Shown one piece after another: positions 1 through 37,230 of a stretch of DNA of 37,230 nucleotides. The notes below the pieces were generated by a model, which saw nothing but the letters and a program-made list of their open reading frames with translations, had not been told where the DNA came from and made no database searches. The position numbers and the translations under genes were made by a program. How positions within the stretch are numbered: position 1 is the stretch's first letter; the number at the start of each line of letters is the position of its first letter. Source of the stretch: a virus; the IMG/VR virus record IMGVR_UViG_3300025597_000002. One strand, written 5' to 3'.

Positions 1-192
1 TCGTACTTGTGCTTGTCGAACTGGTCGGCTGTTGCGTGGTCGTGCTGCTGGTTGTCGAGCTCGTGGTTGAGCTGCTGGTCGGTTGGCTGGTGGTCGTCGT
101 ACTTGTGCTTGTCGAACTGGTCGGCTGTTGCGTGGTCGTGCTGCTGGTTGTCGAGCTCGTGGTTGAGCTGCTGGTCGGTTGGCTGGTGGTCG
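1..192. repeat. 96-bp tandem repeat, two full copies (1-96, 97-192), encoding a 32-aa Thr/Ser/Gln/Pro unit on the minus strand
   Basis: Direct comparison: 1-96 is identical to 97-192, and divergence starts at 196. The period is a multiple of 3. Confidence 0.95.
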
Positions 193-3100: not shown

Positions 3101-3850
3101 GCATTGGCGGCTGGTGGTGGTCGTCGTGGCCAGCTCGTCGGCCAGTTCCGGGACGAACTCTTTCGCCAGTTCTGGATTTTCGAGGAGATTGTCGAACAAG
3201 ACATAACCATCGTCGTCCACGACGAACGCGATCTCGGCGTGGAGGGCCTGCTGGATGGCGATGAGGATCTCTTTCCAGCCGGCGGGTTGGCGGAGGGGGA
3301 TATGGACAAACTGCCAGAAATATCGCGGGTCGACGAGGACCAAGAGGTACAGATCCTCATGTCCTGGGAGCGTTGTCGTCGTCTCCTCGTCAAGGCGACC
3401 CACGGCCGAGACGGGCAGGATGTCGATCGGCCGGCAGAGCAGGCTGCGATATCCCTCGCGATCGTCGGTGCGGAGAAAGAAGAAGAGGTCCTCGTCGAGA
3501 TGCTGATAGAGTCGCCGGGCATCGCTCCCCGTCACGAGGACGAGGGCCACGCCGAAGCGGGTCGCCCCGCTGGGGAGCCAGATCATGTTCAACTCCCATT
3601 GCGGGGGGAGGGCCTGGGCCCACCGCCACTGCGACCAACCGCCGAGGGGCGTCGGCTTCGTGGCCTGGGGAAAGAGCCGCGAGGGCAAGAACGGGCCTTC
3701 CGGCGGGGCGGTGTAGGGCCAGTGCCCGGCCGGCCAGTGGCGACGGAAATACCGTCGCAGACGGCGGTCGGAGCGGCCGTGCACGATCGGCACGGCGAAT
3801 TGGCCGAGGACCTGGAGGCTGGCTTGGAGGGGTACCGCATGGTCGGTCAT
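1..3850 (-). CDS. Giant tail-fibre-like protein, N-terminal and central part. The ORF leaves the window at nt 1 and continues at the other end. It is not in the supplied ORF track.
   Basis: Manual translation of the minus strand (codon first bases at positions = 1 mod 3). ATG at 3850-3848, 4 nt after the stop of ORF 3854..4342. No stop codon down to nt 1, checked line by line. The protein is coherent (MTDHAVPLQASLQVLGQFAVPIVHGRSD...), with Thr/Ser linkers and repeated Cys/Trp modules. Confidence 0.85.
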   Translation of the reverse strand, partial: MTDHAVPLQASLQVLGQFAVPIVHGRSDRRLRRYFRRHWPAGHWPYTAPPEGPFLPSRLFPQATKPTPLGGWSQWRWAQALPPQWELNMIWLPSGATRFGVALVLVTGSDARRLYQHLDEDLFFFLRTDDREGYRSLLCRPIDILPVSAVGRLDEETTTTLPGHEDLYLLVLVDPRYFWQFVHIPLRQPAGWKEILIAIQQALHAEIAFVVDDDGYVLFDNLLENPELAKEFVPELADELATTTTTSRQCLPKTTSTSSSTTSSSTSTSSTSSTTSTSTTTTLPPIYPDPEAWETPGQPATVLLDAVAASLGYTVAGFIDQSLDSAKFTIYLTKVPLFDEENKKDRAGYTVLSGRANLQAEHLPKLKRLYLTYPTCRKGQLQNWQIRDFRETDEEEPTVGERWYRDSACNLTEACARAIAQRITSLRARARPSVGPAVVVPDRGNWGFFSDIDWIETDLERGLVTIAPFHRWVEPTEYQLTCRDVLATTSTSSTRPPSGGIGDPWPKDPQCDPCTCRWKCDHGQLSLLEDTCPEGCQCLEAPSRCRDEDDWEITVPCVTTTTAPCSGSCLWEWDEENLAWTLSESDCSDGCLCADPGFCGGGDCQYARTYCIPQDEPTSPPQCGSTTTGDPTTTSSWVNLWPPGHPCNPNPDGSITSSTSTTPACCCPDEADERGCIGCGWKAVLGWGGALTWVLYQHDCCPQCMCPYPDRPPEDQCDRAHTACTGTTTTQVGCIPCSGGCQWIWSVDLQKWLLVSYDCSRLWNCPCPDGSACIACGCDRPSELPADPTCDDRAFTPCRCTCVSTTTTWPYDCPPPVPPPVRPPTSTTPGCGSPCIVSWDGSAWGGGNCPPECPCAPPPVDGELVGECRESLCRGTSSTTSTSTSTSTSTSTTTTSSTTTTTACPGFCLYAATESGLQLVQNSCQSGCLCAPAPCRQVLPGQTISVGCLTSEQAATTTTCACFGYCEIWASGWPYGYGVQNHCAPGCQCAPPPCDWGWGGNPFPADMSLIVDCIPANQTTTTCLCQGLCFYEIVWTEDGRKQIVPAGGRCPSGCGCPKYCTGDETGYVNVGHFAVPCTDDQELINRTCPCTGDCRWVADATATHWILDQYNCSENCAGCPPPSRLPRAPGAWDMTPCQGTTSTTKAPCGGDCLWQWSSWYRVWVLTEGCPQGCVCEAPPGPGPVWDPEEGWTNDYPSRCINPPPPPPPPPPSSTTSSSSTTTSQPTSSSTTSSTTSSTTTQQPTSSTSTSTTTTSQPTSSSTTSSTTSSTTTQQPTSSTSTST

Positions 3851-3853
3851 GGC

Positions 3854-4342
3854 TCACTCCAAGCTCCAATCGAATTCCACCAAAAACTCCACGGCAAAGC
3901 TGGCATATTCGATCTCGCCCCGGTTGCCGCGAAGCCACACGAGCGGCGTGGCGCTTGTGGCCGCGATCGTGCCGCGGAGGTTCCAGGCCGGGTTGTCCTG
4001 TCCCACCAGGGCCCGCAGCACCTTCTCTTTCCAGGCGAACATCCCGTCATCGGCATCGAGCAGGCGGACCTCATCCTGTCCCGGCCGATCCCGGCTGATT
4101 CTCAGAAAAAGCCGCACCCGGAAGCCCCAACGTTCGCAGACGTTGCCCGGGGTTTGTTCGTCGATGATGAACTGGCTTCCCAGCGGACTGAGGACGCAAA
4201 AGGTCGGATGCGGCGGGATGCGGGCCGGGGCCAGATCGTCGGAAGCCAGAAAGCAGGCCTCGGGCCCCAGTCCCAGACCGTTGCGGAGCAGGCCGAGGAT
4301 CCAACTGAGAATGTCTTGCGGTTTGGTATCGACGCGACTCAT
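3854..4342 (-). CDS. Hypothetical virion/tail protein (162 aa)
   Basis: ORF track. ATGA overlap with the upstream gene at 4339-4342. Lies between the tail-tip gene and the fibre gene. No recognised motif. Confidence 0.55.
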   Translation of the reverse strand: MSRVDTKPQDILSWILGLLRNGLGLGPEACFLASDDLAPARIPPHPTFCVLSPLGSQFIIDEQTPGNVCERWGFRVRLFLRISRDRPGQDEVRLLDADDGMFAWKEKVLRALVGQDNPAWNLRGTIAATSATPLVWLRGNRGEIEYASFAVEFLVEFDWSLE

Positions 4343-6228
4343 AAGGCCCTAACCTCCCCGTGGCTTTCCAGGCTCAAGGATTGGATCGGCGTCCAACCCG
4401 GCGCATCGTCCTTGATGTGGGGCAGGCGGCCGACCGGCCAGGCCGCGGCAGTCTCATCGCTCGGCGGCAGGCGATCCAGGGCATAGCGATAATAGGCCCG
4501 GATGCGATAAATGAGTTCGTCGCCCATCGGGGACGTCACGGGTGGGAGCAGCTCCACATTCCAATCGAGGAGAAAGCCGCGGACACCGTTGGGGTCTTCG
4601 TAGTCGATCGGGGCGGGAATCTTCGGCATCTCGCCATAGCGCTCGGCGTCGAAGACGATCCGCCGTTCGGCCTTTCCGGCCCCCAATTTGACCACAACGG
4701 CCGTTGTTCCGTCGTCTGCCACTCGCGATCGTTCCAGGTGGCCCCGCCCCTTGCGGATCCTGTAGACACTCTTCATCCGGGCATAGGTGTAGTGGGCCTG
4801 CCGGTGCTCGTCCGACCACTTGCTCTCGTTCTCTCCGGCCGGCTCGGGGACCTCCTCCACCCGCTGGACGAGCGTCTCGGGTTGCTCGGGCCGGAGCGTC
4901 TCATCCGGGACCCCGGCCGGGGCCGGCCACCAGCCGGTGGCATGCCAGGGATGATAGGGCCGCTGCAGGTAGCACTGGAAGATCGCCACGGCCGCCGGAT
5001 CACGCTGGTCGCCCCAGGTGTTATAGCCGTACGGGGCCGGCATCCAGGAGAGATTGGGATCATAACGGTCAAAGGGTGGATCGCCGGCGGCGGGGATCGG
5101 CCACGGCTCGAGGCCCTTCAGGTCATGGCCGATGTTGAAGACCTCATCGAAAAAGTTCTGGACCTTGACCTGGTCCCCCGGCGGTGTGTATTGATACTCG
5201 AGGTTGATCTGGACCTCATTCAGTTCACCGATGTTTTCACTCAGTTCGCAATTGATGGGAAGCCAAGTGTACTTGGCCAGTTCCTGCCGCTTCTTCAAAA
5301 ATCCGGTGAGGGCGTCCACGATCTGGACCGCCCGCACAAAGAGGACCCGGCGTGAGACGTGGGGCGGCCCCAACAGCCGCACTTGACAAAGCCCACCGAA
5401 TTGCGTCCCCATCTGGGTCCGCTTACTGTTGCGGACCTCCATCTTGGTGGCCGGCCAAGGGGCCGCGGTGTGGACCTGCCGGTCCACCACTTCATAGTCG
5501 GCGGAAAGCCCATCCTCTTTGACGGCGTAGCGGAGCCGCTGCCGCCTAAAGCCCGCCTCGAGGGCCGGGACCATCAGCCAGCGGTAATCGTAGCCCAGTT
5601 GGGCCACCGGCTTGGAGAGCCTCAGACTGCCGCGGATCGTCCGCGTCAAGAAGAAATTCTCATCGAGTTCTTCTTCCACCGCCCAGCGGTTATCGAGGAC
5701 GACGCCGAGGACCCCCTGACCCTGTTCCAAGTGGGAAGGGCGGTCGGGCGTGCTGGGAAGTTCGAGCTTCTGGCACTGGACCTGCCAACTGACCTTCATC
5801 GCGCGCGTCCCGATCGCCCCGATGATTTCTAGACTGAGCGGCTGCGGGCCATGCGCTAGATCCCGATCCGGATCGTCCGGATTCTCGATCGCAGGGACAC
5901 AGCGAAAGACGGTGGCCGATCCCACGGCCCCATTGGGCTGCTCAATGAGTTGCTCGACAACCAAGGGATGCCGCGGGTCCATGAGGGCCTGACGGGCGTC
6001 CAGCCAGATGTCATGTTTGCTGTGCGGGACGAGCGTCTGGCAGAAGACGTTGGGGCTCTTCCCCTCGTATCCGCTGTAACTGGCCAGGTCAGTGATGACG
6101 CCTTCGAAGGTCATCGTGAAACGCGAATACCAGGGGTCGCTTTGGGTGGGGTCGTAGATCACCTCCTGGCGGAAGGCCTTCGTAAGGACGTTTTTCAAAA
6201 CGATCTTATTGTAGGTGACAATGATCAT
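4339..6228 (-). CDS. Tail tip/baseplate-type structural protein (629 aa), called by position only
   Basis: ORF track. It immediately follows the tape measure gene with a 4-nt overlap. No family recognised. Confidence 0.55.
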   Translation of the reverse strand: MIIVTYNKIVLKNVLTKAFRQEVIYDPTQSDPWYSRFTMTFEGVITDLASYSGYEGKSPNVFCQTLVPHSKHDIWLDARQALMDPRHPLVVEQLIEQPNGAVGSATVFRCVPAIENPDDPDRDLAHGPQPLSLEIIGAIGTRAMKVSWQVQCQKLELPSTPDRPSHLEQGQGVLGVVLDNRWAVEEELDENFFLTRTIRGSLRLSKPVAQLGYDYRWLMVPALEAGFRRQRLRYAVKEDGLSADYEVVDRQVHTAAPWPATKMEVRNSKRTQMGTQFGGLCQVRLLGPPHVSRRVLFVRAVQIVDALTGFLKKRQELAKYTWLPINCELSENIGELNEVQINLEYQYTPPGDQVKVQNFFDEVFNIGHDLKGLEPWPIPAAGDPPFDRYDPNLSWMPAPYGYNTWGDQRDPAAVAIFQCYLQRPYHPWHATGWWPAPAGVPDETLRPEQPETLVQRVEEVPEPAGENESKWSDEHRQAHYTYARMKSVYRIRKGRGHLERSRVADDGTTAVVVKLGAGKAERRIVFDAERYGEMPKIPAPIDYEDPNGVRGFLLDWNVELLPPVTSPMGDELIYRIRAYYRYALDRLPPSDETAAAWPVGRLPHIKDDAPGWTPIQSLSLESHGEVRAL

Positions 6229-27670: not shown

Positions 27671-28540
27671 TTAACGAAATGAAACGTTGATTTTCGGGAC
27701 CACCGGCCGAATGGCTCCCAGCATTCTGGGGTCCACGTAATGCTTGATGGTAGTTTCCGGAGAAGCATGACCCGCCACTCTGGTGGCCATATTCAGATCG
27801 TTCACAGCGGTCCACGTAATACACGTTCGCCGCATCTTCTGAAAAAGCTGCCCGTGTAGTTGCTTCGGGGCTGGAATCCCTGCCCGATCGACAATTCGAC
27901 GCAAGGCCCGATCGGGCCATTTTGGGTTGTACGGGTGTTCCCATACTTTTTCGCGGGGTGGCTCTTTGATTTCCTTTAACAGCACGGCCAAATCCCCGGG
28001 AATCGCGAAAGTCTGCTCGCGTTTGTTTTTGTTGGTTAACGCCTTGAGAAACCGGCCATTGAGGTCGACCTGAAACCAGTACACGTTCAAAAGGCCACTT
28101 AGCCTCAAGCCGGTGTAGTAGCTCGCCAGGAGAATAGACTGCCACCAGAGCCGGGCCGGAACGGAACCCACGTGACCATCCAGTTTCCCCACGTACTCGA
28201 AGAGTTTTTTGGTCTCTTCTAAGGTCCAGGCATCGGGGGTCCGCTTTTCCACTTGGATTCTTGGAAAGCGTGGCAAACGAGAAATTAGACCGCGTTGAAA
28301 CGCCTCGTTGACAATCGCTTTCAAGACGACGAGATAGTGTTTCAGAGAATGCGATGACCGGCAGTGATTTCCCACGGTGGAAAGGTACCGCCCGATATGT
28401 TCTTCGCAGATATCGCCAACAAAGATGTCTCCGTTGGCCTCGATGAATCTCTTGATCACCCGCTTGATATCGTCGTGGTGTTTTTGCGACTGATGAGGCC
28501 GCAAGAGAGCGTACTGCTCCGCGAGATGAGACATCTTCAT
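27671..28540 (-). CDS. int: Tyrosine recombinase / phage integrase (289 aa)
   Basis: Catalytic pattern: GLRLSGLL (Arg), HGQLFQKMRRT (His-x-x-Arg), GHASPETTIKHYV (His...Tyr). Confidence 0.85.
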   Translation of the reverse strand: MKMSHLAEQYALLRPHQSQKHHDDIKRVIKRFIEANGDIFVGDICEEHIGRYLSTVGNHCRSSHSLKHYLVVLKAIVNEAFQRGLISRLPRFPRIQVEKRTPDAWTLEETKKLFEYVGKLDGHVGSVPARLWWQSILLASYYTGLRLSGLLNVYWFQVDLNGRFLKALTNKNKREQTFAIPGDLAVLLKEIKEPPREKVWEHPYNPKWPDRALRRIVDRAGIPAPKQLHGQLFQKMRRTCITWTAVNDLNMATRVAGHASPETTIKHYVDPRMLGAIRPVVPKINVSFR

Positions 28541-28786
28541 GGCGCCTTCTCCATGGGTGCACGGCGGCCTTTTGGGCTGCCTTGCCCCCTGAAGGCCACG
28601 GAGTCATGACAAGTCTTTCCCTATCGAAAGTATGCCATATTCCGCGCAGCGAGAGCGCACAATTTCCGCGCATAACACCATTCCAAATTGTGCCAATGCG
28701 GGCTACACGCCCAGTGTTTTGGTTGTGAGCACCCGCCAAGCCGCCTCAGAGGAGGCTCAGAAGATGCCCGGTGATTAATCCAACCG

Positions 28787-28817
28787 CCATTGTACAGATA
28801 TCAGACCAATTGTCAAT
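28787..28817. repeat. Imperfect direct repeat copy A (CCATTGTACAGATATCAGACCAATTGTCAAT)
   Basis: About 24 of 30 positions match copy B at 29082. Lies between xis and int. Confidence 0.6.
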
Positions 28818-28845
28818 AACATACAAGTATGAAATTATCTGCGTA

Positions 28846-29070
28846 TCAGGAAAAGAGTTGCGTATTCACGCGAGAACGAGGCCGCCCCACGCTCGAAGGC
28901 TCACGGAATTTGTCGGCTTCAGATTTCGGCACAACCCAGATCTTTTTCCCCATTTTTTGGCCGCGCATTATCCCAGACCGAAGCAGTCGGCAAACGTAGC
29001 CCTCGGTGACTCCAAGATACGATGCGACCTCCGAAACGGTAAGCATTACGTCGGGATTCTGCAGCGCCAT
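28846..29070 (-). CDS. Excisionase-type HTH DNA-binding protein (74 aa from the ATG at 29070)
   Basis: MLTVSEVASYLGVTEGYVCRLLRSG is an excisionase/MerR-like HTH. GGAGG 8 nt upstream of the ATG at 29070. Lies upstream of int. Confidence 0.6.
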   Translation of the reverse strand: MALQNPDVMLTVSEVASYLGVTEGYVCRLLRSGIMRGQKMGKKIWVVPKSEADKFREPSSVGRPRSRVNTQLFS

Positions 29071-29081
29071 ACTCATACCCT

Positions 29082-29113
29082 CCATTGTACTGATAGACGA
29101 CCAATTCGGCAAT
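29082..29113. repeat. Imperfect direct repeat copy B (CCATTGTACTGATAGACGACCAATTCGGCAAT)
   Basis: Matches copy A. Overlaps the xis translation-start and promoter-proximal region. Confidence 0.6.
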
Positions 29114-29481
29114 TCAAATGGCAGGCGTGGATAGGCTCACCGGGCACCGGAAGCCCCCCAGTCCTCGCGGAGCTGGGCACCTGCCATATACTTGGTGTTT
29201 TTCCGGAATATGCTAGAATCTTTCCTGAGGACCTAACATGACATCTCGATTCAGGAGACGAACCAATGGTGAAAGCCTTCCTGAAATCTCGCCTCTGCGA
29301 CCCACCAGTGGATTGCACGCCGGCAAATATCAATTCCGATTTGTTAAAGCAGCCCATTCCTGGCGACAAAGTCTATCATGCCGCACTCGAGGCTTATAAA
29401 AGCCAAAATGTATCTTTTGTGTACGCATGTCCCCTGGATTCTAGATAAAACGAGAGAATGCTTAACATCTGTTGCTTAAAC

Positions 29482-29512
29482 TGGGGTACTAGGATTCGAA
29501 CCTAGCGCCACA
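29482..29512 (-). other. tRNA 3'-half-like fragment (perfect T-arm plus acceptor strand); candidate attP core
   Basis: In minus sense: GCGCTAGG TTCGAAT CCTAG TACCCCA. No matching 5' acceptor strand, D-arm or canonical anticodon arm upstream. Confidence 0.5.
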
Positions 29513-29671
29513 CGAAATCTCCATGAGTAGTTCGTGTGCACAAAAGGAGCATTAACGAATCAGTGCACCTGAGTTGGAGTCAGCACACACCCTATAGCCC
29601 GGTAGGGGGGGTGGGAGAGCGTGTTCGCACCCGCGACACACAGATCCACAGTCTGGTTCCCCTCAGGGAGA

Positions 29672-29730
29672 GCGGAAGCCAGAATTCGACCCCGCAACGC
29701 CCAGCTTGGGAAGCTAGCGCTCTAACCGAC
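29672..29730 (-). pseudogene. Degenerate tRNA-Gly(CCC)-like remnant
   Basis: In minus sense: GTCGGTTAGAGCGC (D-loop-like), CTAGC TTCCCAA GCTGG (anticodon arm, CCC), then GCGGG GTCGAAT TCTGG CTTCCGC. The T-stem is mispaired and there is no 5' acceptor. Confidence 0.4.
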
Positions 29731-29931
29731 GGGGATCGGGGCCGAACCGACTGGCAGAGGAAGATAGGCCATTACGGGGCTTTCGGCTTTTGCGTGCTTA
29801 CGAAAAGGCTTGCACTGACTGGGAAGACCACAACTCAGCACCTGTAAAACTTGATTGGCTTACGTGGTCTTGCGGATACACGGGAGTGCAAGGAAAAGGT
29901 GTTAGGGGGAAGTTGGGAAAAAGAAGAGGCT

Positions 29932-30708
29932 TCACTCAGGATTTTTCGGCGGCCAAAATACCCCCACGACAATCCAGGCCTTCTTCTGGTAAACGTTCCC
30001 TACAAAAAAGTAAGTATCTCTGTTTGGCCCGCACATCTCATCAAGAAATTTTGCTCGCACGTCTTTGAGAGCTTTTTCTTCCCCTTTTTTATCCCGTATT
30101 TTTCGGAAGAGCTGGTAGATTTCCCAGTCGAGAATCGTCTGTTGGTGGCCACGGCAGTTGCTGGCCTCGCAGCGATACCTGTATTTAAATTTCCACGGAA
30201 TCTTTTCCAAAGGCTTTTGGCCGGGGCCAAAGAGTGTGAGTTGTTCAAACAGTTTCTGATACTTAGGCTCCCACGACGGCGAATCTTTTTCGATGACCAG
30301 GTCATGAACGATTTTTGGCTTTACAACGGCGAGAGACTGGCTGAGCGGCCCAGATTTTTGGAGACCGCACATCGTAGCCGGTGGATTGGCTAGCACAATT
30401 TTCTTGCGTGCGGACCAGTCGCGATCTGCGGGAAGATGAGAAACAGTCTCGATAGGTTTATCGGGGTCGGGGCGGTATGATTCCGGGCGTGGGTCATTTG
30501 AATGTTTAACGGCGACGACTTTGATCCATTCGTACTTACGAAACCACTGTGTGTATGGGCGATACCGATAGTTAATAGGGTAAAGGCGAATCCATTTTCC
30601 TTCTTCCGTCATCCCCGCAGTGCAGACAACCTCCTGATGGTGCTGCGATGGACGCGGGTAGGTCTTTACCAGCACAAGTACTTTCAATTCCCGCCAATTC
30701 TGTTCCAT
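29932..30708 (-). CDS. Hypothetical protein (258 aa), partner of the DUF488 gene
   Basis: ORF track. Coherent sequence (KVLVLVKTYPRPSQHHQEVVCTAGMTEEGKWIRLYPINYRY ... CEASNCRGHQQTILDWEIYQLF). GC about 45-50% by eye. Confidence 0.6.
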   Translation of the reverse strand: MEQNWRELKVLVLVKTYPRPSQHHQEVVCTAGMTEEGKWIRLYPINYRYRPYTQWFRKYEWIKVVAVKHSNDPRPESYRPDPDKPIETVSHLPADRDWSARKKIVLANPPATMCGLQKSGPLSQSLAVVKPKIVHDLVIEKDSPSWEPKYQKLFEQLTLFGPGQKPLEKIPWKFKYRYRCEASNCRGHQQTILDWEIYQLFRKIRDKKGEEKALKDVRAKFLDEMCGPNRDTYFFVGNVYQKKAWIVVGVFWPPKNPE

Positions 30709-31198
30709 CCCGGAGCTCCCGAACTGTGATTCCGCTTATGGCATGGATGGACTGCGCGAGGACCCAACGGTGGCAATCCCGCGGGTTCATTTCATAGCAC
30801 AATAACAGGAGATTATAGGTCTTCGCAATCGCAAGAAGGGAGAGCACGGCTTTTTCCGCATTAGGCAAGAGGACGGTTCGATAAAGCGAAAGCAACTCAA
30901 CGCGGCGGCCTGGCAAGTAACTTTTTCTGATGCGAGCAGGAATTCCTAGCTCTGGAAAGTGCAAATATTCCAGACCATTAGCGGAGCACGTTTTGTCCAG
31001 TGATGCTTTGCAAAATTCTCGTCGCCGGGAAAAAGGATTGGCCCGAATATCGATAAGATGCGTAATCTGATTAACACCTATCACCTCGATAAGGTTTGGC
31101 AAGCTCATCCGCTCATATCCGGCTGTGAAGAGTATTCGCGAACTTCGCGTCTCGGAAGATGGTCGTTCGAAGCTGTGATTGATCATGGCGAACAACAT
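30572..31198 (-). CDS. DUF488-family protein (start at 31198 or 31186)
   Basis: ILFTAGYERMSLPNLIEVI, HLIDIRANPFSRR, LLLCYEMNPRDCHRWVLA match the DUF488 pattern. The 45-aa tail overlaps the next gene by 137 nt. Confidence 0.65.
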   Translation of the reverse strand: MLFAMINHSFERPSSETRSSRILFTAGYERMSLPNLIEVIGVNQITHLIDIRANPFSRRREFCKASLDKTCSANGLEYLHFPELGIPARIRKSYLPGRRVELLSLYRTVLLPNAEKAVLSLLAIAKTYNLLLLCYEMNPRDCHRWVLAQSIHAISGITVRELRDGTELAGIESTCAGKDLPASIAAPSGGCLHCGDDGRRKMDSPLPY

Positions 31199-31493
31199 CC
31201 ATGTTTGCCCAAAGTGGGCGACAGTAACGGCACAACACTTCCAGCAAGCGGGCGACATCCGCCTGTGCAAAACTGTAGCACACAGCCACCAACCGCGCAA
31301 TACCACCGTCGGGGGATATCAAGGTAGTGAGCGACGATTCTCGGCAGATCGATGGTCCCCCCAGCAGAAGCCGCGACTCACGGATCGGAATTGCACGCCA
31401 CACAGGGGACATCTAGAATTTGGTGGATTGGGGAAAAGGGAGTTTTGACTAGAGCGGGAGTTCATTCCTGTTTGTTCGCAGGAGATCGCTGAT

Positions 31494-31997
31494 ATGATCA
31501 CCGGAAAAGACAAGTGGGTGCTAAGTGCTCTCGCTATAGCACCTTTGGACCGTATTCGTTTGATGAAGGCGCTCTTCCGCCTATGGTGGCATTCAGGGAA
31601 GTCTATCCCAGATTTTTTTTCATTTAAGCCTTATCTTTACGGGCCGTGGAGTCCTGAGGTCTACGACTCCCTGGAAAGGCTCGAAAAGGAGGGATTCATA
31701 GTTCGGTTGCCTCACCCGGTTCCGGCTTGGTCAAAATATCATCTCACAGACCGTGGAAGACGCGCAATTCAGGGTGTGATTCCAACCATCAATCAATCGC
31801 ATTTGGGTTTGCTGAAAAAGCTGACTCATGAAACAGCCAACCTTGGTTTCTACGAACTCCTGAAACTTGTTTACAATGAGTCCCCTGAGTTTGCCCAAAA
31901 CTCGGTTGTAAGAGAGGTCCTGCTGCATGACACTGATTCTTGCTTTGACGGCGCGGAGTGCCGGGCGGAGTGGGACGCGTTTGTTGACATAAAGTAG
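31494..31997 (+). CDS. Winged-helix protein, YwgA / Panacea(DUF4065)-like by recollection (167 aa)
   Basis: LDRIRLMKALFRLWW...FSFKPYLYGPWSPEVYDSLERLEKEGFIV. AGGAGA SD 10 nt upstream of the ATG. One of very few plus-strand genes. Confidence 0.5.
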   Translation: MITGKDKWVLSALAIAPLDRIRLMKALFRLWWHSGKSIPDFFSFKPYLYGPWSPEVYDSLERLEKEGFIVRLPHPVPAWSKYHLTDRGRRAIQGVIPTINQSHLGLLKKLTHETANLGFYELLKLVYNESPEFAQNSVVREVLLHDTDSCFDGAECRAEWDAFVDIK

Positions 31998-32206
31998 TCG
32001 CGGAACTTTTCGCGCGCCCACTCGGCAAGGTCGTCGTTACCTCTTAACAGCTCGTCCCTGACGCGATCGATGCTGCAGAGGTCTTGCTTTTCGGCGTGTG
32101 TGATTAGTGCCTCCCAAAAACCAGGGGCAAGGTCAAAGGCGTAATATCTTTGCGCCGCTTGGATGAAAACACTGGCATCGAGTAGGAAAGGCACTCGGGG
32201 AATCAT
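31871..32206 (-). pseudogene. DUF4411 (PIN-like) N-terminal remnant, truncated
   Basis: MIPRVPFLLDASVFIQAAQRYYAFDLAPGFWEALI...IDRVRDELLRGNDDLAEWA matches the first ~75 aa of DUF4411. The remainder is unrelated and overlaps the convergent gene. ATGA coupling to ImmA at 32203-32206. Confidence 0.55.
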
Positions 32207-32910
32207 ATTCTGCCTGATAACGCCCGCTGGAGGAAACAATCGAAGGTTTTACCGTAAAGTCCCGTCAGGCGATAGGCCTCCCGATAGAGCAGATCTCCTT
32301 CGAGGACCGCGTGTATGACTGCCATAGCAAAGCTTCGGCCGAGTTTCTGCATTTGCGTGGCATAGAAATTTCCGCCGTGCCGCCTGCTGGTTCGTTCACG
32401 CCCTCGCTCCTGATGCGTTCGGTAAAACTCTGAAAAGTCCTCGCGGTTCATGAAACCCAAGTCCAGGGCTCGCCGAGCGGCGACAATCTTGCTTACCTTG
32501 AAACTGCGGGCCATTACCTGCAGAATATCCCGCGACCCCCCGTGCCGCCGCCACAATTTTGTAAAGTTTTCGCTGGGCACAAGGAACTCCGCGGCGATGC
32601 GGTTGCAGACTTGTTCGGTTCTTTCGTCCGCTGGCTGGAGCTCGCGCAGATCGAAGGCGCTGCTGCTGCCGAGCCATAGATGGGCAAGTTCGTGGGCGAA
32701 GGTGAACATCTGCGCCGCTTTGCTATCGGCGCTGTTGATGAAGATCAGCGGTGCGTAGTCATCAACCATGACAAAACCGCGAAATTCTTCGGGATTTAAC
32801 AGGCGGTGTGTGTCGTTGCCCACGGTGCTGCTGCTGACCACCAAAATACCAGCGCTATCAGCTTTATCCTGGAGGGCGATGATTACTACATCTACGCGCC
32901 TTCCCCTCAA
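32203..32910 (-). CDS. ImmA/IrrE-type zinc metallopeptidase domain; probably the detached C-terminal half of an XRE-ImmA fusion
   Basis: HEXXH in FTFAHELAHLWLG. There is no in-frame ATG near the 5' end (only TTG at 32910), with an in-frame stop at 32956-32958. Confidence 0.65.
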   Translation of the reverse strand: MRGRRVDVVIIALQDKADSAGILVVSSSTVGNDTHRLLNPEEFRGFVMVDDYAPLIFINSADSKAAQMFTFAHELAHLWLGSSSAFDLRELQPADERTEQVCNRIAAEFLVPSENFTKLWRRHGGSRDILQVMARSFKVSKIVAARRALDLGFMNREDFSEFYRTHQERGRERTSRRHGGNFYATQMQKLGRSFAMAVIHAVLEGDLLYREAYRLTGLYGKTFDCFLQRALSGRI

Positions 32911-32975: not shown

Positions 32976-33052
32976 GCGTTCCTTTATGGAAGCGGCTGCC
33001 CGGTGCAAGCCGCAACATCCTGTAACGGGTTTCTGTAAAGGGACGCGTGACC

Positions 33053-33154
33053 ATGCTGGAACGACTTCTTCTCAACGTGCGTGAAGCGGCTTACCGCCTT
33101 GGAATTTCTACCCGGCACCTCTGGAATTGGAAGGCCTCCTGCCACGTTCTGTAA
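33053..33154 (+). pseudogene. Truncated excisionase/AlpA-like HTH fragment (33 codons)
   Basis: Manual translation gives MLERLLLNVREAAYRLGISTRHLWNWKASCHVL. Below the track length cut-off. Overlaps the 3' end of the XRE ORF on the other strand. Confidence 0.3.
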
Positions 33155-33597
33155 TGGACCGCCCATTCCGCGTCCATCGCGAGTTGCTTCCTGATCCTCG
33201 CGGCTACTTCACCAGGCGGATCGTCCACAGTCGCAGACCCAATGAAGCTCAGGCGTTCCTGGCCCTGTTCGATCAGATACTCGCGCATCCACTGCTGGCG
33301 TTGGTGCGTGATGGAAACGGTTTCCGCCAGATCGGAGCTTGGCGGCTGCTGGCCCAGCTCTTTCTGGGTGCGGAAGAGCGGGAGGGGGAATCGTTCTTCA
33401 GGGGGCCGCTCCAGAAAGAGGAAACCAAACGGCACATGACCCAGGCGAGCAAAGCGTTCGAGTTGACGGAGGGTGGGTTGCTTCCGCCCAGAAAGCCAGT
33501 CGTTCAGTTCGGGAAACCTGGCGCAGACGTCTGCCGGGGCGCGACGGATCGCCCAGGAGAGCACCTCTTGTTTGATGTCGACCCGGATTGTTTTCAT
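33091..33597 (-). CDS. XRE-type HTH protein (168 aa); probably the detached N-terminal half of an XRE-ImmA fusion
   Basis: KQPTLRQLERFARLGHVPFGFLFLERPPEE is an HTH typical of ImmA-linked XRE regulators. The last ~12 codons look foreign. Confidence 0.6.
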   Translation of the reverse strand: MKTIRVDIKQEVLSWAIRRAPADVCARFPELNDWLSGRKQPTLRQLERFARLGHVPFGFLFLERPPEERFPLPLFRTQKELGQQPPSSDLAETVSITHQRQQWMREYLIEQGQERLSFIGSATVDDPPGEVAARIRKQLAMDAEWAVHYRTWQEAFQFQRCRVEIPRR

Positions 33598-33754
33598 GGC
33601 GCGAAGATCGTGTTTTGGCCCGGCTAGTCCCTGGGGTTAACTTGAAGAGAAGCGACCTCACCAATGAGGTCCGGCTACGTCTTCTCAGGTCCCCAACAGA
33701 TTATAGGGCTGCGGGAGATCTCTTTCCAGATGGATTGCGAACGGCCGCCCGGGC

Positions 33755-34501
33755 CTATGCTCGGCCATCCGGGATTCGCCACTGGCCATTCCCCTTATAA
33801 ATCGGCCCGGTTTCCTTGTCAAAAGCGATCCGCAGGTCTTCTGGTGAGAGTGGTGGCGCGGCCTCCTGGACGGCCTGATACCAACTCGTATCGTCCGGGC
33901 CCCGCATGAAGAATTGGGCGTGGTAGGCCCCGGTGGAGCCGTAGCGGAAGATGTAGCCGGGAACGGGGTGAACGGTCAGCGGATCGGCCGGCGGTCCGAA
34001 TTTCTGCGTCAGGGACGCCATCAACTGCTGGTCGAAGTCGGCCCGGCCGTTTTCCGGCCATCGCACACTTTCCCAGGCCCGGCGCGTGAGGAGGATCGAG
34101 GCGTGGAAGCGCCCGGCGGCGGGCTCTTCTTCGAGTTTGCCGGTGTAGAGTGAAAGCACGCGGGACGGTTTCGACCAGGCCGCCCCGGACTGGGTCAAAG
34201 CCAAAATGTGGGCCTCGAGGTAATGGGGCAGGTAAATATCATCGTCCTCCCAAACGGCCAGGTAATCGGCGTCGTACTCCGTGATAGCCAGTTTGGCCAG
34301 GGCGTTGTATTTCGCCCCCAGATTGGGAAATCGGCCCGAGGTGACGACCTGGACCGAGCCGTAGCGGCCGGCTTTGAGGGCCCCACCGTCTTCCCAGATG
34401 ATGAGTTTGTGCGGCAGGTCGATCTTCTGGGCCAGGAAGCAGGCCGCGGCGTTGCCGGCCAGGTTGGGCCGGCGAAACGTCGGACAGAGGGCCACGATCA
34501 T
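33755..34501 (-). CDS. GT-A fold glycosyltransferase (248 aa from the ATG at 34501)
   Basis: MIVALCPTFRRPN..., acidic DxD-like WEDDDIY. ATGA overlap with the upstream gene at 34498-34501. Confidence 0.65.
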   Translation of the reverse strand: MIVALCPTFRRPNLAGNAAACFLAQKIDLPHKLIIWEDGGALKAGRYGSVQVVTSGRFPNLGAKYNALAKLAITEYDADYLAVWEDDDIYLPHYLEAHILALTQSGAAWSKPSRVLSLYTGKLEEEPAAGRFHASILLTRRAWESVRWPENGRADFDQQLMASLTQKFGPPADPLTVHPVPGYIFRYGSTGAYHAQFFMRGPDDTSWYQAVQEAAPPLSPEDLRIAFDKETGPIYKGNGQWRIPDGRA

Positions 34502-35184
34502 GGGTTTTCCTCCAGAAGGACCTGGGCCAGGCGAAAGCTCCAAGAGATTCCACTGGGTCGTTCGGTCAGGGTTGTCTTGAGGTAGAAGCGGAGTTCGTCG
34601 TTGATGGAATCCCGGGTCCAGTACCAGGGGAGATGCCGGGCCATGTACGGCGGTCCGACGCGGAGGGCCGGGCCGTAGATGCTGCCCGGGCGGCGGTTGT
34701 CGTAGAGGGCGAAGGTCGTATCGATGGGGGCCTCGTAGAACGTCACGCCCTTTGCTTGGCCGGTCGGTTTTTTCCAGTAGGCATGTTCCCATTGTCGAAT
34801 CTCACTGGTCAATGGGGCCTCGGCTGGAAGGTCACCGATGGCCAACGACAGGCCGACCTTGTGGGCGGTTTTGTCTAGGGAAAAGCCCTCGTTCAGAATC
34901 TCGATCGCGTCGTCCGGTACGCTCGACAAATCGAGGTCCCCGTCGGTGACAACACACCGTTTTTCGGCGTGGACCAGTCCGAGGGCCCAGGCCACACGGG
35001 GGCCGTGGTTTTGCCGGGCCCGCACGACCTCGACCTGTTTCTGCTGGTCCAACCAGGCCAGAAGCGGCGGATAGGTCGAAGCGTTGTCGACAATCACCGG
35101 CTTAAGCCCCAGCCGGCGGACATCTTCCACCAGGTGGATCAAGGGCGTGAGCAGATTCCAGGAGGTGATAAAGCACGGGATCAC
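34498..35184 (-). CDS. Glycosyltransferase-like protein (228 aa, GTG start)
   Basis: PVIVDNASTY and VVTDGDLD (DxD) patterns. Starts 1 nt after the upstream stop. Confidence 0.5.
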   Translation of the reverse strand: MIPCFITSWNLLTPLIHLVEDVRRLGLKPVIVDNASTYPPLLAWLDQQKQVEVVRARQNHGPRVAWALGLVHAEKRCVVTDGDLDLSSVPDDAIEILNEGFSLDKTAHKVGLSLAIGDLPAEAPLTSEIRQWEHAYWKKPTGQAKGVTFYEAPIDTTFALYDNRRPGSIYGPALRVGPPYMARHLPWYWTRDSINDELRFYLKTTLTERPSGISWSFRLAQVLLEENP

Positions 35185-35185
35185 G

Positions 35186-36901
35186 TCAAGACTCCTCCGG
35201 CAGCCATTTTCCGAGGGGGCAGGCCTGTTCGGCCCATTCGGCCTTGCCGCCCTGGCCGGTGGGCGAACCGATCAGGTAGCAGCCGCAGATGGAACAACGG
35301 TTGTCGCTGCGGTGTTCGCAGAGGGCGCAGATATCGAGCCGTTTTTCCAGAGTCGCTTCGCTGACCATTTTGCCGCCTTCTTTGAGGTGCTGGACGACGG
35401 CCCTGGCGAAGTTGAAGGCCTGCCGGGCCAGATTGGGGAGCGGCTTTTTGTCCTCGGGCACTTGCGAAATCACCGTCAGGCCGTAATCTTCCCGAACGTG
35501 TTTGAGGACGACGAACTCGGGGTGTTCCTTGAGAAACCGCCGCAGGGCGGGCAGGATCCCGGGGCGATTATCGAAGCGTTCGCCGAAGATCTCGGTGTCG
35601 TGGAGGGCAATCCTCGATGCCAGCGGTCCGAACGTTTCGAGGATGTTCCAGGTCGTGGGGGCGTCGTGGACCGGATGATCGACAAAGAGCAGGTCGCATG
35701 CCCGCGGTTGGGCCGCCGTCAGGCCCGGGACTGCTTGCCAGACCAGGCCGTCGGGGAGGCCGTCCAGTTCCGGCGGCCTGACGCCTTCATAGATCGAGAC
35801 GAGTTCCTTGGCCTTGGCCGCGAAAATCACCGTCGAAATCTCCGGGCGGTGGGTGATCTCGATCACCGTGCCTTTTTCGGCCAGTTCCCGAAGCAGTGGC
35901 ACGTGGGCCCGCAGTTCGTGTTCCCGGTCGAGGCCGGCTTCGAGCTCCGCCAGGGAGGCCCGAAGGGGCTTGCCGCAACCGCCGCAGCCAGAGGTTTTTC
36001 TGGCGGGGGGCTGGAGGTGGTTTTCCGGGTCGGCCACGAGGTAGTCCCAATCCTCCTGGCTCATGCGGTTGAGGGCCCCCTGGGGCGGCGACCCGTCGCC
36101 TGGGTCTTCCCCTTCGCCGAGGACGAAGTGTTTGTAAATTCGGTCCAAAGGCAGGCCCAGTTCGCGGTGTTCGAGGACGTAGTTGCGGACCTTATTCCAC
36201 TGCGTCAGGGGATAGGGGACACCCTTGGGGCGGCCGAAGCGGTGGACCCAGCCCAGGCCGGGCAGGCACCAGCACTTGCGGCCGGCCCGGCGGTACTTCT
36301 CGTGGATGTAGCACTCTTCGCCGCCGAAGCCGCGGGCCAGAGGATGAAAGCCCAGCCAACTTTCGCGGCGGGCGCAGAACAGCCCCAAGCCCTGGGCGAA
36401 GATTTCGAAGGGGGGATTGGTGGAGGATTGGCCGCGGGGATCGGAGCCCCAGATCCCCCACATCTCGGCCCGCCAGACGTCCTGGAAATGGGTCCAGCGA
36501 TGTCGCAGATCGTCGGAGTACAGGACGCCTTGAATCAGATCATCGCAGGGGTGATGCTCTTCCAGGAATCGCCGCAACGCCGCCAGGGCCCCCGGCAGCA
36601 AGATGACGTGCGAATCGACGACCAGGACGTAATCGCCCGTGGCGTGGCGGAAGATGGCATCGCGGGCCGGGCTGGTGCCTACCGGTTCGGCCAGGGGAAC
36701 GTATTTGACTTCGCGATTGCCGCGGAGGGAGCGGCAGTAGTTGGCCAGGTCGCGGGCCTCCGGGGCCTGCGGGTGGTTGTCAATGAGGACGATCTCCGTC
36801 ACCTCCGCCGGCGTCGTCCGGCAGATGATGTTTTCGATCGTGAAGTAGGCCCCGTCGAAGTCGTCGTAGGTGGCAAGGCCGAAGGTTATCGTAACCGACA
36901 T
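35186..36901 (-). CDS. Multidomain protein (571 aa): N-terminal GT2-type glycosyltransferase, central Rossmann/methyltransferase-like region, C-terminal Cys-rich motif
   Basis: ATG at 36901, 5 nt after the fibre ORF stop. TITFGLATYDDFDG..IVLIDNHP..VLVVDSH. Later CDLLFVDHPVHD..IALHDT. C-terminal CALCEHRSDNRCSICGCY...CPLGKW. Confidence 0.65.
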   Translation of the reverse strand: MSVTITFGLATYDDFDGAYFTIENIICRTTPAEVTEIVLIDNHPQAPEARDLANYCRSLRGNREVKYVPLAEPVGTSPARDAIFRHATGDYVLVVDSHVILLPGALAALRRFLEEHHPCDDLIQGVLYSDDLRHRWTHFQDVWRAEMWGIWGSDPRGQSSTNPPFEIFAQGLGLFCARRESWLGFHPLARGFGGEECYIHEKYRRAGRKCWCLPGLGWVHRFGRPKGVPYPLTQWNKVRNYVLEHRELGLPLDRIYKHFVLGEGEDPGDGSPPQGALNRMSQEDWDYLVADPENHLQPPARKTSGCGGCGKPLRASLAELEAGLDREHELRAHVPLLRELAEKGTVIEITHRPEISTVIFAAKAKELVSIYEGVRPPELDGLPDGLVWQAVPGLTAAQPRACDLLFVDHPVHDAPTTWNILETFGPLASRIALHDTEIFGERFDNRPGILPALRRFLKEHPEFVVLKHVREDYGLTVISQVPEDKKPLPNLARQAFNFARAVVQHLKEGGKMVSEATLEKRLDICALCEHRSDNRCSICGCYLIGSPTGQGGKAEWAEQACPLGKWLPEES

Positions 36902-36906
36902 AACTG

Positions 36907-37230
36907 TCACCCTGTGCAATAAACGTAGCGAATTTCGCCCTGGTATTGAGGATTGGACGGTGTTGGACAATTACAACTACTTGGACATCCTTCGTAGGTG
37001 CAGTCGTAATAGAGCATCCAGCCGTATTCGTCGTCCCATTGCCACGCGCATTGGCATTGATTGCACGGCGATGGTGACGTGCTTGTGCTCGAGCTCGTGG
37101 TCGGTTGCTGGCTCGTCGTCGTACTTGTGCTTGTCGAACTGGTCGGCTGTTGCGTGGTCGTGCTGCTGGTTGTCGAGCTCGTGGTTGAGCTGCTGGTCGG
37201 TTGGCTGGTGGTCGTCGTACTTGTGCTTGT
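36907..37230 (-). CDS. C-terminal segment of the same giant ORF (last Cys/Trp module and stop)
   Basis: nt 1 equals nt 37119 through the terminal overlap, and both are codon first bases, so the frame is continuous. It reads ...TSTSPSPCNQCQCAWQWDDEYGWMLYYDCTYEGCPSSCNCPTPSNPQYQGEIRYVYCTG, then TGA at 36909-36907. Confidence 0.8.
   Translation of the reverse strand, partial: TSTSTTTTSQPTSSSTTSSTTSSTTTQQPTSSTSTSTTTSQQPTTSSSTSTSPSPCNQCQCAWQWDDEYGWMLYYDCTYEGCPSSCNCPTPSNPQYQGEIRYVYCTG
37119..37230. repeat. Terminal duplication identical to nt 1-112 (circular-assembly overlap, inside the tandem repeat)
   Basis: Base-by-base identity of 37119-37230 with 1-112. Confidence 0.95.

Follow-up and report, generated by a model that had tools for sequence, protein, structure and literature searches.

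A candidate O-glycosylation cassette with a polypeptide GalNAc-transferase-like enzyme, coupled to the gene of a mucin-like tail protein in an environmental phage

The machinery that initiates mucin-type O-glycosylation is usually regarded as eukaryotic. In animals and apicomplexans, the initiating enzymes are the GT27 polypeptide GalNAc-transferases (GalNAc-Ts), whose defining features are a DxH motif, a third Mn-ligand His and the GGE "Gal/GalNAc-T" motif (PMC11074326). Glycosylation of virion proteins by viral enzymes has been reported for actinobacteriophages such as Che8 (Freeman 2023, as cited in PMC12582341 and PMC13313380). It is also described for the chlorovirus PBCV-1, where A064R, a GT+GT+methyltransferase fusion, and A111/114R represent soluble multidomain proteins that join glycosyltransferase (GT) and sugar methyltransferase domains and build a virion protein's glycan (PMC7826918). 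Temperate phages, moreover, carry Gtr- and TarP-type GTs, which are GT2-family enzymes with a GT-A fold.

The window analyzed here is the whole 37,230-nt stretch, a circular 37.2-kb phage contig with its first 112 nt identical to the last 112 nt. Near its end lie three GT genes, named GT1, GT2 and GT3 (the GT2 gene being distinct from the GT2 family). With a probability of roughly 0.6, they form a late-expressed cytoplasmic protein O-glycosylation cassette, dedicated to the mucin-like tail protein encoded directly upstream. The fibre-like gene stops with TGA at 36909-36907 and is followed, after 5 nt (cagtt), by the GT1 ATG at 36901. GT1 ends at 35186, 1 nt (35185) before the GTG of the GT2 gene at 35184, with GGAGGAG 8 nt upstream, and the GT2 gene stop and GT3 start share ATGA at 34501-34498, preceded by GGAGGAAAA; an SD-like GGAGG stands ahead of both GT2 and GT3. 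The three ORFs are translationally coupled to one another and to the fibre gene, the last tail gene, with which they are co-oriented, and the cassette sits between it and an HTH/ImmA regulator pair. The junctions given in the initial annotation (36907, 36901, 35184, 34501) were all confirmed on the minus strand. Its phage-like GC was confirmed as well, with 0.60-0.63 at 33-37 kb and 0.58-0.67 for the region of the structural genes. Its placement of the fibre within 33755-37230 holds for the C-terminal end: only the last 107 codons are located there, and the rest runs from 3850 to 1 across the contig junction.

Table 1. Coordinates of the features of the tail-GT region in the window
Feature	Position	Strand	Remark
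Perfect tandem repeat, 96-nt (32-codon) TS-rich unit	1-195		Sequence repeat
Fibre-like gene, N-terminal and central part	1-3850	-	ATG 3850, open frame past coordinate 1
Two tail-module genes directly upstream of fibre	3854-6228	-	629 aa (6228-4339), 162 aa (4342-3854)
Promoter-like hexamers TGGAAA-17-TATAAT	33700-33728	-	Consensus match only; weak signal
GT3, 248 aa	33755-34501	-	GT2-family GT-A enzyme; gene end 33755
GT2 gene, 228 aa, GTG start	34498-35184	-	Small GT-A enzyme
GT1, 571 aa	35186-36901	-	ATG at 36901
GT1, six-Cys DUF6171 domain (aa 498-566)	35410-35204	-	Family comparison
GT1, Methyltransf_24-like Rossmann domain (~aa 317-480)	35953-35462	-	Degenerate motif I
GT1, ppGalNAc-T-like GT-A domain (~aa 1-290)	36901-36032	-	D96-S-H98, F192GGEE196, H220
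Fibre-like gene, last 107 codons and stop	36907-37230	-	TGA 36909-36907
Extra copy of the 96-nt repeat	37119-37230		Identical to 1-112; forms contig terminal overlap

Read in frame from ATG 3850 to position 1 and continued at the window end, the complete fibre-like protein comprises ~1353 aa. This join is valid because two relatives (L001/L002) carry one uninterrupted 1412-aa homologue, 44% identical to the fibre, directly upstream of GT1. The copy number of the 96-nt repeat in the gene is uncertain, the reading frame being kept since any copy number preserves it. A non-repetitive N-region of ~490 aa is followed by Cys modules with Thr/Ser linkers between them: 11 copies of a ~36-aa module (C-x3-C-x-W-x-W...W-x-L...C-x2-GC-x-C-x2-PP), each with 5 conserved Cys (C-x3-C...C-x3-C-x-C). 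The C-terminal portion combines the TS-rich repeat with a Cys module (CNQCQCAWQWDDEYGWMLYYDC...YQGEIRYVYCTG) that is conserved in L001 and L004. Overall, the protein contains 101 Cys (7.5%) and 22% T+S. The initial annotation spoke of at least ten Thr/Ser tracts; 21 runs of at least four T/S were counted, and together with the tandemly repeated 32-aa TS-rich unit they give the protein the multiple Ser/Thr-rich tracts and tandem repeats of a mucin-like domain. The fixed positions of the module Cys suggest structural disulfide or metal roles. The initial annotation called the fibre Cys-knot-like; a cystine knot consists of three interlocked disulfides in a knotted topology, and the two CxxxC pairs per module could equally be metal knuckles. 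No Pfam or PHROG family matched the protein, and the labels "fibre", "receptor-binding" and virion protein are positional, taken from its place in the gene order and its neighbours.

GT1 matched Pfam PF00535 with E 1.2e-12 (48.5 bits; cutoff 23.3); among its relatives, PF00535, PF13578/PF04989 and PF19668 occur. In a Foldseek comparison of its AF2 model (pLDDT 93) with the PDB, the best 50 matches were all GT27 polypeptide GalNAc-Ts (E 4e-13 to 1e-10; rmsd ~4 A across 260-300 columns), a ranking that is partly generic to GT-A folds, since the model of the small GT2 protein also ranks GalNAc-T2 first. The GT-A domain is superposable on the GT27 enzymes over ~270 residues with the DxH, third His and GGE aligned. 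In particular, D96-S-H98 and H220 align with the DSH and the ...GHI(Y/F) His of GalNAc-T10, -T7 and TgT3, and F192-G-G-E-E196 aligns with the WGGE(N/Q) Gal/GalNAc-T motif; the D-S-H, GGE and third His are invariant across 60 relatives. A profile of aa 88-265 searched against the whole PDB sequence set matched only GalNAc-T7, -T10 and TgT3. At the sequence level, the similarity to GT27 is marginal (best E 3.6e-4), and PF02709 was matched by 7 of 22 GT1 relatives (best E 4.1e-5), the window protein giving no match at E<=1. With the full-length profile, the wall-teichoic-acid GT2 enzyme TarP outscores GT27 over the nucleotide-binding half; the C-terminal half and the motifs match GalNAc-Ts and not TarP or GtrB. 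Sequence and model together thus indicate a catalytic domain with the fold and the metal-binding motif of polypeptide GalNAc-Ts, and probably with their sugar-binding motif, and the presumed substrate, a Thr/Ser-rich mucin-like tract, is also of the GT27 type.

Unlike these eukaryotic enzymes, GT1 is viral/bacterial and has neither signal anchor nor Golgi context, and is therefore predicted to be soluble and cytoplasmic. No ricin/lectin match was found in GT1, whose C-terminus instead consists of Methyltransf_24-like and six-Cys DUF6171 domains. This architecture recalls the PBCV-1 fusions, whose domains, however, are not orthologous to those of GT1 and whose glycans are N-linked and attached, in a virus of eukaryotes, to the major capsid protein. 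A further difference from A064R concerns the methyltransferase-like domain itself: the Rossmann fold is present in the AF2 model, but motif I reads EITHRPEIST versus ELGxxRGGST in relatives, the GDS motif is lost, and no SAM-binding glycine-rich motif I is recognizable. In this genome the domain is probably only structural. The GT, methyltransferase-like and Cys-motif protein of the initial annotation thus has all three domains, one of them with a degenerate motif. By analogy with the GalNAc-T lectin domain, the six-Cys domain may bind metal and help to dock the substrate.

The GT2 protein reached 21.3 bits with PF00535, under the cutoff of 23.3. Its AF2 model (pLDDT 96) is folded as a GT-A enzyme and matches GalNAc-T2, TarS and TarP, and the sequence contains VDNAS and D81-x-D83 motifs, with D33 and D81xD83 being family-invariant. 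GT3 has no Pfam match itself; its relatives, which bear the name GT2 family, do contain PF00535, the family profile found GT2-family enzymes in the PDB (E 8.7e-5), and E85-D86-D87-D88 is invariant in the family. There were no TM segments in the GT1, GT2 or GT3 proteins. Family and fold evidence hence agrees with the early assignment of three glycosyltransferase genes and characterizes all three ORFs as soluble GT-A enzymes. The term "three-enzyme cassette" describes only this genome, because no homologue of the GT2 protein was present in 60 viral loci (L001-L060); its homologues elsewhere are on contigs with GT1 and GT3 homologues. GT3 is next to GT1 in L001-L006, L008-10, L012, L014, L018, L019, L024-26, L061, L081 and L082. 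What is conserved is the combination of the fibre-like protein with GT1 and often GT3, the GT2 protein being accessory.

Very divergent phages share the pairing of a GT1-type enzyme with a tail protein made of Cys modules and Thr linkers, and the pair is located in tail modules. Of 38 dereplicated IMG/VR clusters, which span GC 0.39–0.65, 30 have a gene rich in Cys or in Thr runs directly adjoining the GT1 homologue, and a reciprocal search starting from the Cys-rich protein alone found a GT next door in all 10 assessable loci; the co-occurrence in related phages suggested as a check in the initial annotation is thus strongly positive. Among the 505 non-overlapping ORFs of at least 200 aa in the 60 loci, the 43 with at least 5% Cys are nearly all directly beside a GT. 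An identical gene order was found in a prophage of the planctomycete Thermostilla marina, where the cassette lies near the prophage end beside host rpsO and pnp, and in two metagenomic contigs (L081, L082). In relatives, the neighbours of the pair match tape measure, tail spike and tail fibre PHROGs, and one relative's protein ends in Gly_rich_2; GNAT, sulfotransferase, extra GT2-family and GT9-like genes also occur beside GT1. The synteny could partly result from shared ancestry.

The invariant property of the partner gene is its high Cys content (6-14%), even where the T/S runs are short (L027, L034, L046, L053). GT2-family S-glycosyltransferases exist, and glycocin enzymes such as SunS glycosylate Cys, so that the abundant Cys might themselves be the acceptors, or the chemistry might concern another residue or a non-protein substrate such as DNA. 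Such a different chemistry is very improbable: a SunS-type structure is missing from the best 50 PDB matches of GT1, the five Cys of each module stand in fixed positions, and no hydroxymethyl-pyrimidine pathway genes were among the ORFs scanned.

Lysogenic-conversion genes are typically situated where the late region ends and lysogeny regulators adjoin it. The cassette, beside HTH/ImmA lysogeny-type regulators, is in such a place, and so is that of the Thermostilla prophage. The GTs might accordingly be expressed from the prophage and alter host envelope glycans (LPS, capsule, cell-wall glycoproteins), blocking superinfection or changing surface antigens, with the fibre adjacency being merely the usual "moron" position. 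TarP, the best match of the full-length GT1 profile, is indeed a prophage-encoded wall-teichoic-acid GT, and a GtrB entry is at rank 27 of the GT1 structural matches in BFVD. Several features make this improbable. The GTs have no TM helices and are not accompanied by anything resembling GtrA or GtrC (the ORFs in 33-37 kb include neither a flippase nor a GtrC-like protein), and the C-terminal half of GT1 is GalNAc-T-like, in contrast to Gtr- and TarP-type systems; the Gtr-like homology that the initial annotation had set against its own proposal did not emerge. The 5-nt fibre-GT1 spacing is too short to accommodate an independent promoter. Marine relatives have the GT amid the genes of the structural module, flanked by the Cys-rich gene on one side and by a tail-fibre-like gene of 1000-2257 aa on the other. 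Finally, a specific Cys/Thr-rich partner would be needless for a host-directed enzyme, and this obligate neighbour of GT1 has no counterpart in those systems.

The actinobacteriophages offer a closer parallel, with phage GT genes, sometimes accompanied by a methyltransferase, beside structural genes, and with cytoplasmic glycosylation of virion proteins, which is putative for the present locus; the Che8 glycosyltransferase ranks 6 (E 2e-10) in the BFVD matches of GT1. The targets there are reportedly the capsid and tail tube proteins. Such other or additional virion proteins, or a host protein, might be modified here as well, with the Thr linkers as flexible spacers, and the 5-8 GT1-homologue clusters without an adjacent Cys/Thr-rich gene (L015, L016, L020-23, L054) are in line with this. 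It is nevertheless unlikely, given that the fibre is the sole T/S-tract protein of the genome, none of the other window proteins having more than two short T/S runs in a genome-wide count, and that the fibre-GT association is reciprocal. Compared to the actinobacteriophage system, the putative target is the adjacent modular Cys/Thr tail protein instead of the capsid or tail tube, the enzyme that would initiate resembles GalNAc-Ts, and the hosts are Planctomycetota-like and marine bacteria.

In the favored reading of an O-glycosylation cassette for the tail protein, GT1 would initiate O-glycosylation on linker Thr/Ser between the Cys modules with a UDP-sugar and Mn2+, while extension of the glycan would fall to GT3, plus the GT2 protein in this genome. 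Its decoration in relatives might be the task of the fused methyltransferase domain, together with sulfo- and acetyltransferases encoded nearby. The resulting fibre would resemble "beads on a string", in which stiff, protease-resistant, mucin-like glycosylated spacers display small Cys-stabilized modules for host contact. The glycosylated, mucin-like apparatus originally predicted is supported by the co-occurrence, the non-Gtr enzymes and the GalNAc-T-like GT1. No BLAST-level similarity was found among the phage genomes deposited in GenBank, and no paper describing the fibre-GT cassette was found; it is likely a new form of phage virion glycosylation. More tentatively, and at somewhat less than even odds, many environmental phages (prophages of the Planctomycetota type and marine phages whose GC is near 0.40) would make their own mucin-type glycoprotein by means of a GT27-like cytoplasmic enzyme that is fused to tailoring domains and modifies the Thr linkers of the adjacent Cys-rich tail protein, whereby accessory GT, sulfo-, acetyl- and methyltransferases diversify the glycan. 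If true, the machinery initiating mucin-type O-glycosylation would have a large prokaryotic-virus branch.

The promoter-like hexamers downstream of the cassette are located right after the GT3 stop and ahead of the HTH/ImmA regulators, and the late unit may end there; the promoter scan yielded 2 sites versus 1.6 expected. Upstream of the fibre, the 629-aa and 162-aa genes are tightly packed, with an ATGA overlap between them and the stop of the 162-aa gene 3 nt before the fibre ATG. Family searches gave no match for either protein; the 629-aa protein shares 26% identity with a 761-aa protein that the Thermostilla prophage encodes in the same module. The host probably belongs to Planctomycetota or a neighbouring phylum.

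The predicted tail protein gene directly upstream of the glycosyltransferase cassette, named the fibre after its position and neighbours, reads across the contig junction and starts 3 nt after a 162-aa tail-module gene ends. The terminal 112 nt of the contig are identical and the same 37,230-nt contig is present in NCBI, where it belongs to a MAG labelled Candidatus Hydrogenedentes; the window was therefore treated as an assembly that is circular or overlaps at its ends. The join of the fibre ORF is validated by its two closest relatives (IMG/VR loci L001 and L002), in which a single unbroken 1412-aa homologue with 44% identity lies directly upstream of the gene for GT1, the first cassette enzyme. 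The interval 33755-37230 proposed in the initial annotation thus holds the glycosyltransferase genes but only the last 107 fibre codons, the remainder lying across the junction (3850 to 1). The terminal overlap falls within a perfect 96-nt (32-codon) tandem repeat spanning the junction and encoding a 32-aa TS-rich unit, so that the number of repeat copies is uncertain and, with it, the length of the fibre; the reading frame is safe whatever the copy number. Both may vary within the phage population.

The fibre protein (about 1353 aa) contains 101 Cys (7.5%) and 22% Thr + Ser, with 21 runs of at least four T/S residues, which bears out the T/S tracts recognized earlier; every other protein of the genome has two short ones at most. 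Its modules, in 11 copies of about 36 aa with five conserved Cys (xxCxGxCxWxWxxxxxxWxLxxxxCxxGCxCxxPP), are each preceded by a Thr-rich linker. Pfam and PHROGs searches with the fibre gave no family, the sole weak PHROG match being on a TS tract. A module profile retrieved 27 sequences at E≤1e-3 from 1.84 billion representative proteins, each of them multi-module, with a reach limited by the shortness of the profile. The whole Cys region found one near-identical contig only, from another sample (L063, IMGVR_UViG_3300025657_000010). Its fibre segment is 97% identical to that of the window, and near-identical phages are therefore present in more than one metagenome.

The cassette follows the fibre closely: re-reading of the coordinates gave the three junctions exactly as first annotated, with a 5-nt spacer from the fibre stop to GT1, a 1-nt spacer from GT1 to GT2, and an ATGA overlap of GT2 with GT3 at 34501. 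An SD-like GGAGG precedes both GT2 and GT3, and the GC content of 0.60-0.63 is phage-like, as claimed, and matches the structural region. The assignment of all three genes to glycosyltransferases also held. In GT1, Pfam gives a GT2 domain (E 1.2e-12) and, below threshold, DUF6171; the C-terminus matches a PHROG of unknown function. Relatives of GT1, more than 800, have the architecture PF00535 + PF13578/PF04989 (Methyltransf_24/CmcI) + PF19668. The AF2 model of GT1 (pLDDT 93) consists of three domains, with a conserved GCGxCG in the disordered linker between them. Among its fold matches in PDB, the best 50 were all polypeptide GalNAc-transferases (human, mouse, Drosophila, Toxoplasma). Direct phmmer searches of GT1, GT2 and GT3 against PDB sequences gave nothing meaningful. 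Of all PDB sequences, a profile of GT1 residues 88-265 matched only GalNAc-T7, GalNAc-T10 and TgGalNAc-T3. In this alignment, D96-S-H98 corresponds to DSH, F192GGEE to WGGE(N/Q) and H220 to the third Mn ligand of GalNAc-Ts, all being invariant across 60 GT1 relatives; 7 of 22 relatives matched PF02709, the Gal/GalNAc-T motif family. Eukaryotic enzymes of GT27, the CAZy family initiating mucin-type O-glycosylation, are defined by a ricin lectin domain and a membrane anchor (PMC11074326). GT1 has neither and is therefore called GalNAc-T-like rather than a GT27 member.

The methyltransferase-like domain of GT1 keeps the fold but no longer has the glycine-rich motif I or the GDS motif. Its SAM motif I reads EITHRPEIST, whereas 64%-identical relatives keep ELGxxRGGST and GDS; judging from these residues, the domain is probably inactive in the window lineage and in P0004. 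The DUF6171 domain has six Cys (C-x2-C-x7-C-x2-C-x-C-x19-C); with those of GCGxCG, eight Cys are conserved, which may form a Zn or Fe-S site or serve to dock the substrate.

GT2 (228 aa) was just under the Pfam threshold, with invariant VDNAS and DxD motifs in its family. Since the family profile was not significant against PDB (E 0.51), a structure model was used: the AF2 prediction (pLDDT 96) has a GT-A fold, with GalNAc-T2, TarS and TarP among its matches. No GT2 homologue occurred in the 60 viral loci obtained with GT1 (see below); from contigs of equal length, we infer that it shares other metagenomic contigs with GT1 and GT3 homologues. GT3 (248 aa) has no Pfam match of its own; its relatives carry PF00535, and its profile, with an invariant EDDD, matches PDB enzymes of family GT2 (E 8.7e-5). 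An NCBIfam search added nothing useful.

Scanning IMG/VR with GT1 yielded 60 loci of diverse GC (0.39-0.65) and glycosyltransferase identities as low as 30%. Their tail modules are not alike, with tape measure genes as neighbours in one set of loci and tail spike or tail-fibre-like genes in another. Among their 505 non-overlapping ORFs of at least 200 aa, 43 had at least 5% Cys. Nearly all of these directly preceded the GT1 homologue, with a gap of 5-117 nt, or in several clusters directly followed it. At least three T{3,} runs were present in 84% of the Cys-rich proteins vs 3.7% of other ORFs, most of the latter being likewise glycosyltransferase neighbours. After dereplication at 90% identity, a Cys-rich or Thr-run-rich gene adjoined the GT1 homologue in 30 of 38 clusters; three of the other eight were contig-edge, frameshift or one-gene-removed cases. 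As the whole Cys region had found only L063, the reciprocal search used the N-terminal MTQCCQCDG...GACCY motif of marine Cys-rich proteins, by which alone its 17 loci were found; all 10 with enough downstream sequence had a GT1 homologue 25-120 nt downstream. The co-occurrence of fibre and glycosyltransferase genes, proposed as a check in the initial annotation, is seen from both sides.

GT3 homologues stand beside GT1 in most high-GC loci of the 60. The order Cys/Thr-rich protein, GT1, GT3-like was found in three further contexts, the Cys/Thr-rich protein having 1042 aa and 6.2% Cys in a prophage of Thermostilla marina, 654 aa and 8.1% Cys in a prophage on a 197-kb scaffold, and 863 aa and 8.5% Cys on an 80-kb contig. 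The 654-aa protein ends with a Gly_rich_2 domain of the tail-fibre type. T. marina is a cultured Planctomycete whose genome encodes one of the GT1 relatives; its prophage (GCA_054657455.1, contig BAAHYR010000001.1, about 2.20-2.22 Mb) ends beside rpsO and pnp. This prophage suggests hosts of the Planctomycetota type, although the MAG is labelled Hydrogenedentes. Genes adjoining GT1 in relatives encode GNAT, sulfotransferase and extra GT2 or GT9-like enzymes, which suggests, as far as gene content goes, sulfated or acetylated glycan variants. A glycan pathway would be expected to combine, in this way, a conserved initiator with variable tailoring genes.

The marine Cys-rich tail proteins of four loci (L030, L031, L042, L053) start with MTQCCQCDG-TPPPPP-GACCY, and several marine ones have sub-threshold Hint/intein-like matches directly after it (aa ~62-207); they may be self-processing.

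In the proposed mechanism, the soluble, late-expressed enzymes would act on the adjoining tail protein: GT1 would initiate O-glycosylation on its Thr/Ser linkers and the glycan would be extended by GT3, and in the window genome also by GT2, giving a mucin-like fibre that presents small Cys-stabilised modules. Lysogenic conversion, whereby the cassette would modify host surface glycans, is possible given its location next to regulators, but the tight coupling of the genes, the specific and reciprocal partner, the location of the glycosyltransferase amid the structural genes of marine relatives and the absence of membrane components (no TM segment in GT1, GT2 or GT3) argue against it. The enzymes could also glycosylate other virion proteins; glycocin-like S-glycosylation of the Cys residues is improbable. 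DNA glycosylation was set aside, since no genes for hypermodification were seen and it is a tail gene to which the enzyme is coupled.

To our knowledge, phage-encoded virion glycosylation has so far been shown in only a few actinobacteriophages. At the BLAST level, the gene pair is absent from deposited GenBank phage genomes: tblastn against 50,697 phages gave no match for the Cys-module region, GT1 or GT3. Literature searches covering GT27 and phages, Planctomycetes prophages, and Thr/Cys-rich tail proteins linked to glycosyltransferases yielded no description of such a pair. The actinobacteriophage glycosylation is known from Freeman 2023, as cited in PMC12582341 and PMC13313380, and multidomain GT-methyltransferase enzymes from chloroviruses (PMC7826918). 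The locus points to an arrangement different from, and much more widespread than, that of actinobacteriophages: a predicted enzyme-substrate gene pair, readable from sequence, across dozens of lineages of uncultured phages. A GalNAc-T-like candidate initiator bears on the origin of mucin-type O-glycosylation, and the small Cys modules on glycosylatable linkers represent a new family and may be a general design of host-binding fibres. The hypothesis is directly testable in the cultured T. marina with its matching prophage. Furthermore, the pair could give a rule for annotating tail proteins among viral dark matter, and the cassette could provide soluble bacterial-type O-glycosyltransferases to glycoengineering.

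Features of the phage genome (window coordinates) and tailoring genes of related loci (locus coordinates)
Feature	Position	Strand	Remark
Identical ends	1-112 = 37119-37230
96-nt tandem repeat	1-195 and 37119-37230
Fibre ORF	3850-1, then in frame from 37230 to 36907	-	ATG 3850; TGA 36909-36907
GT1	36901-35186	-	ATG start; 571 aa
GT1, GCGxCG	35989-35972	-	aa 305-310
GT1, methyltransferase-like domain	35953-35462	-	aa 317-480
GT1, DUF6171 domain	35410-35204	-	aa 498-566
GT2	35184-34498	-	GTG start
GT3	34501-33755	-
Low-GC island	28000-32500		GC 0.50-0.55
Weak PadR-like ORF	31494-31997	+	low-GC island
DUF488 protein	30572-31306	-	low-GC island
phrog_25907 protein, 258 aa	29932-30708	-	low-GC island
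RecT, replication initiator, DnaC-like loader	27-23 kb	-	first in transcription order
TTG-start ORF, 122 aa	22403-22771	-	early region
Large terminase	19724-18198	-	after replication genes
Protease, scaffold, capsid, adaptor, portal	17-11.7 kb	-	after large terminase
Tail genes	10-4.3 kb	-	after portal region
GT1-adjoining tailoring genes in relatives	L007 11898-12578; L004 11752-12204; L008 12001-12657		including sulfotransferase (PF03567), GNAT acetyltransferase, GT9-like enzyme

Most genes of this phage genome are on the minus strand, and its TerL shares no more than 36% identity with that of any known phage (50,697 GenBank phages). A promoter and terminator scan gave no convincing signals. 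The low-GC island, flanked by the ImmA/HTH regulators on one side and the RecT/replication genes on the other, may have been acquired as an accessory or defence element. In the fibre and cassette (1-4000 and 33000-37230), the GC skew of the coding strand runs opposite to the skew of the remaining minus-strand genes (13-27 kb); for the fibre this is explained in part by Thr codon bias, which does not explain it for the glycosyltransferase genes. The 122-aa TTG-start ORF of the early region, beginning with MMTTTTTT and containing 5.7% Cys, may be spurious.
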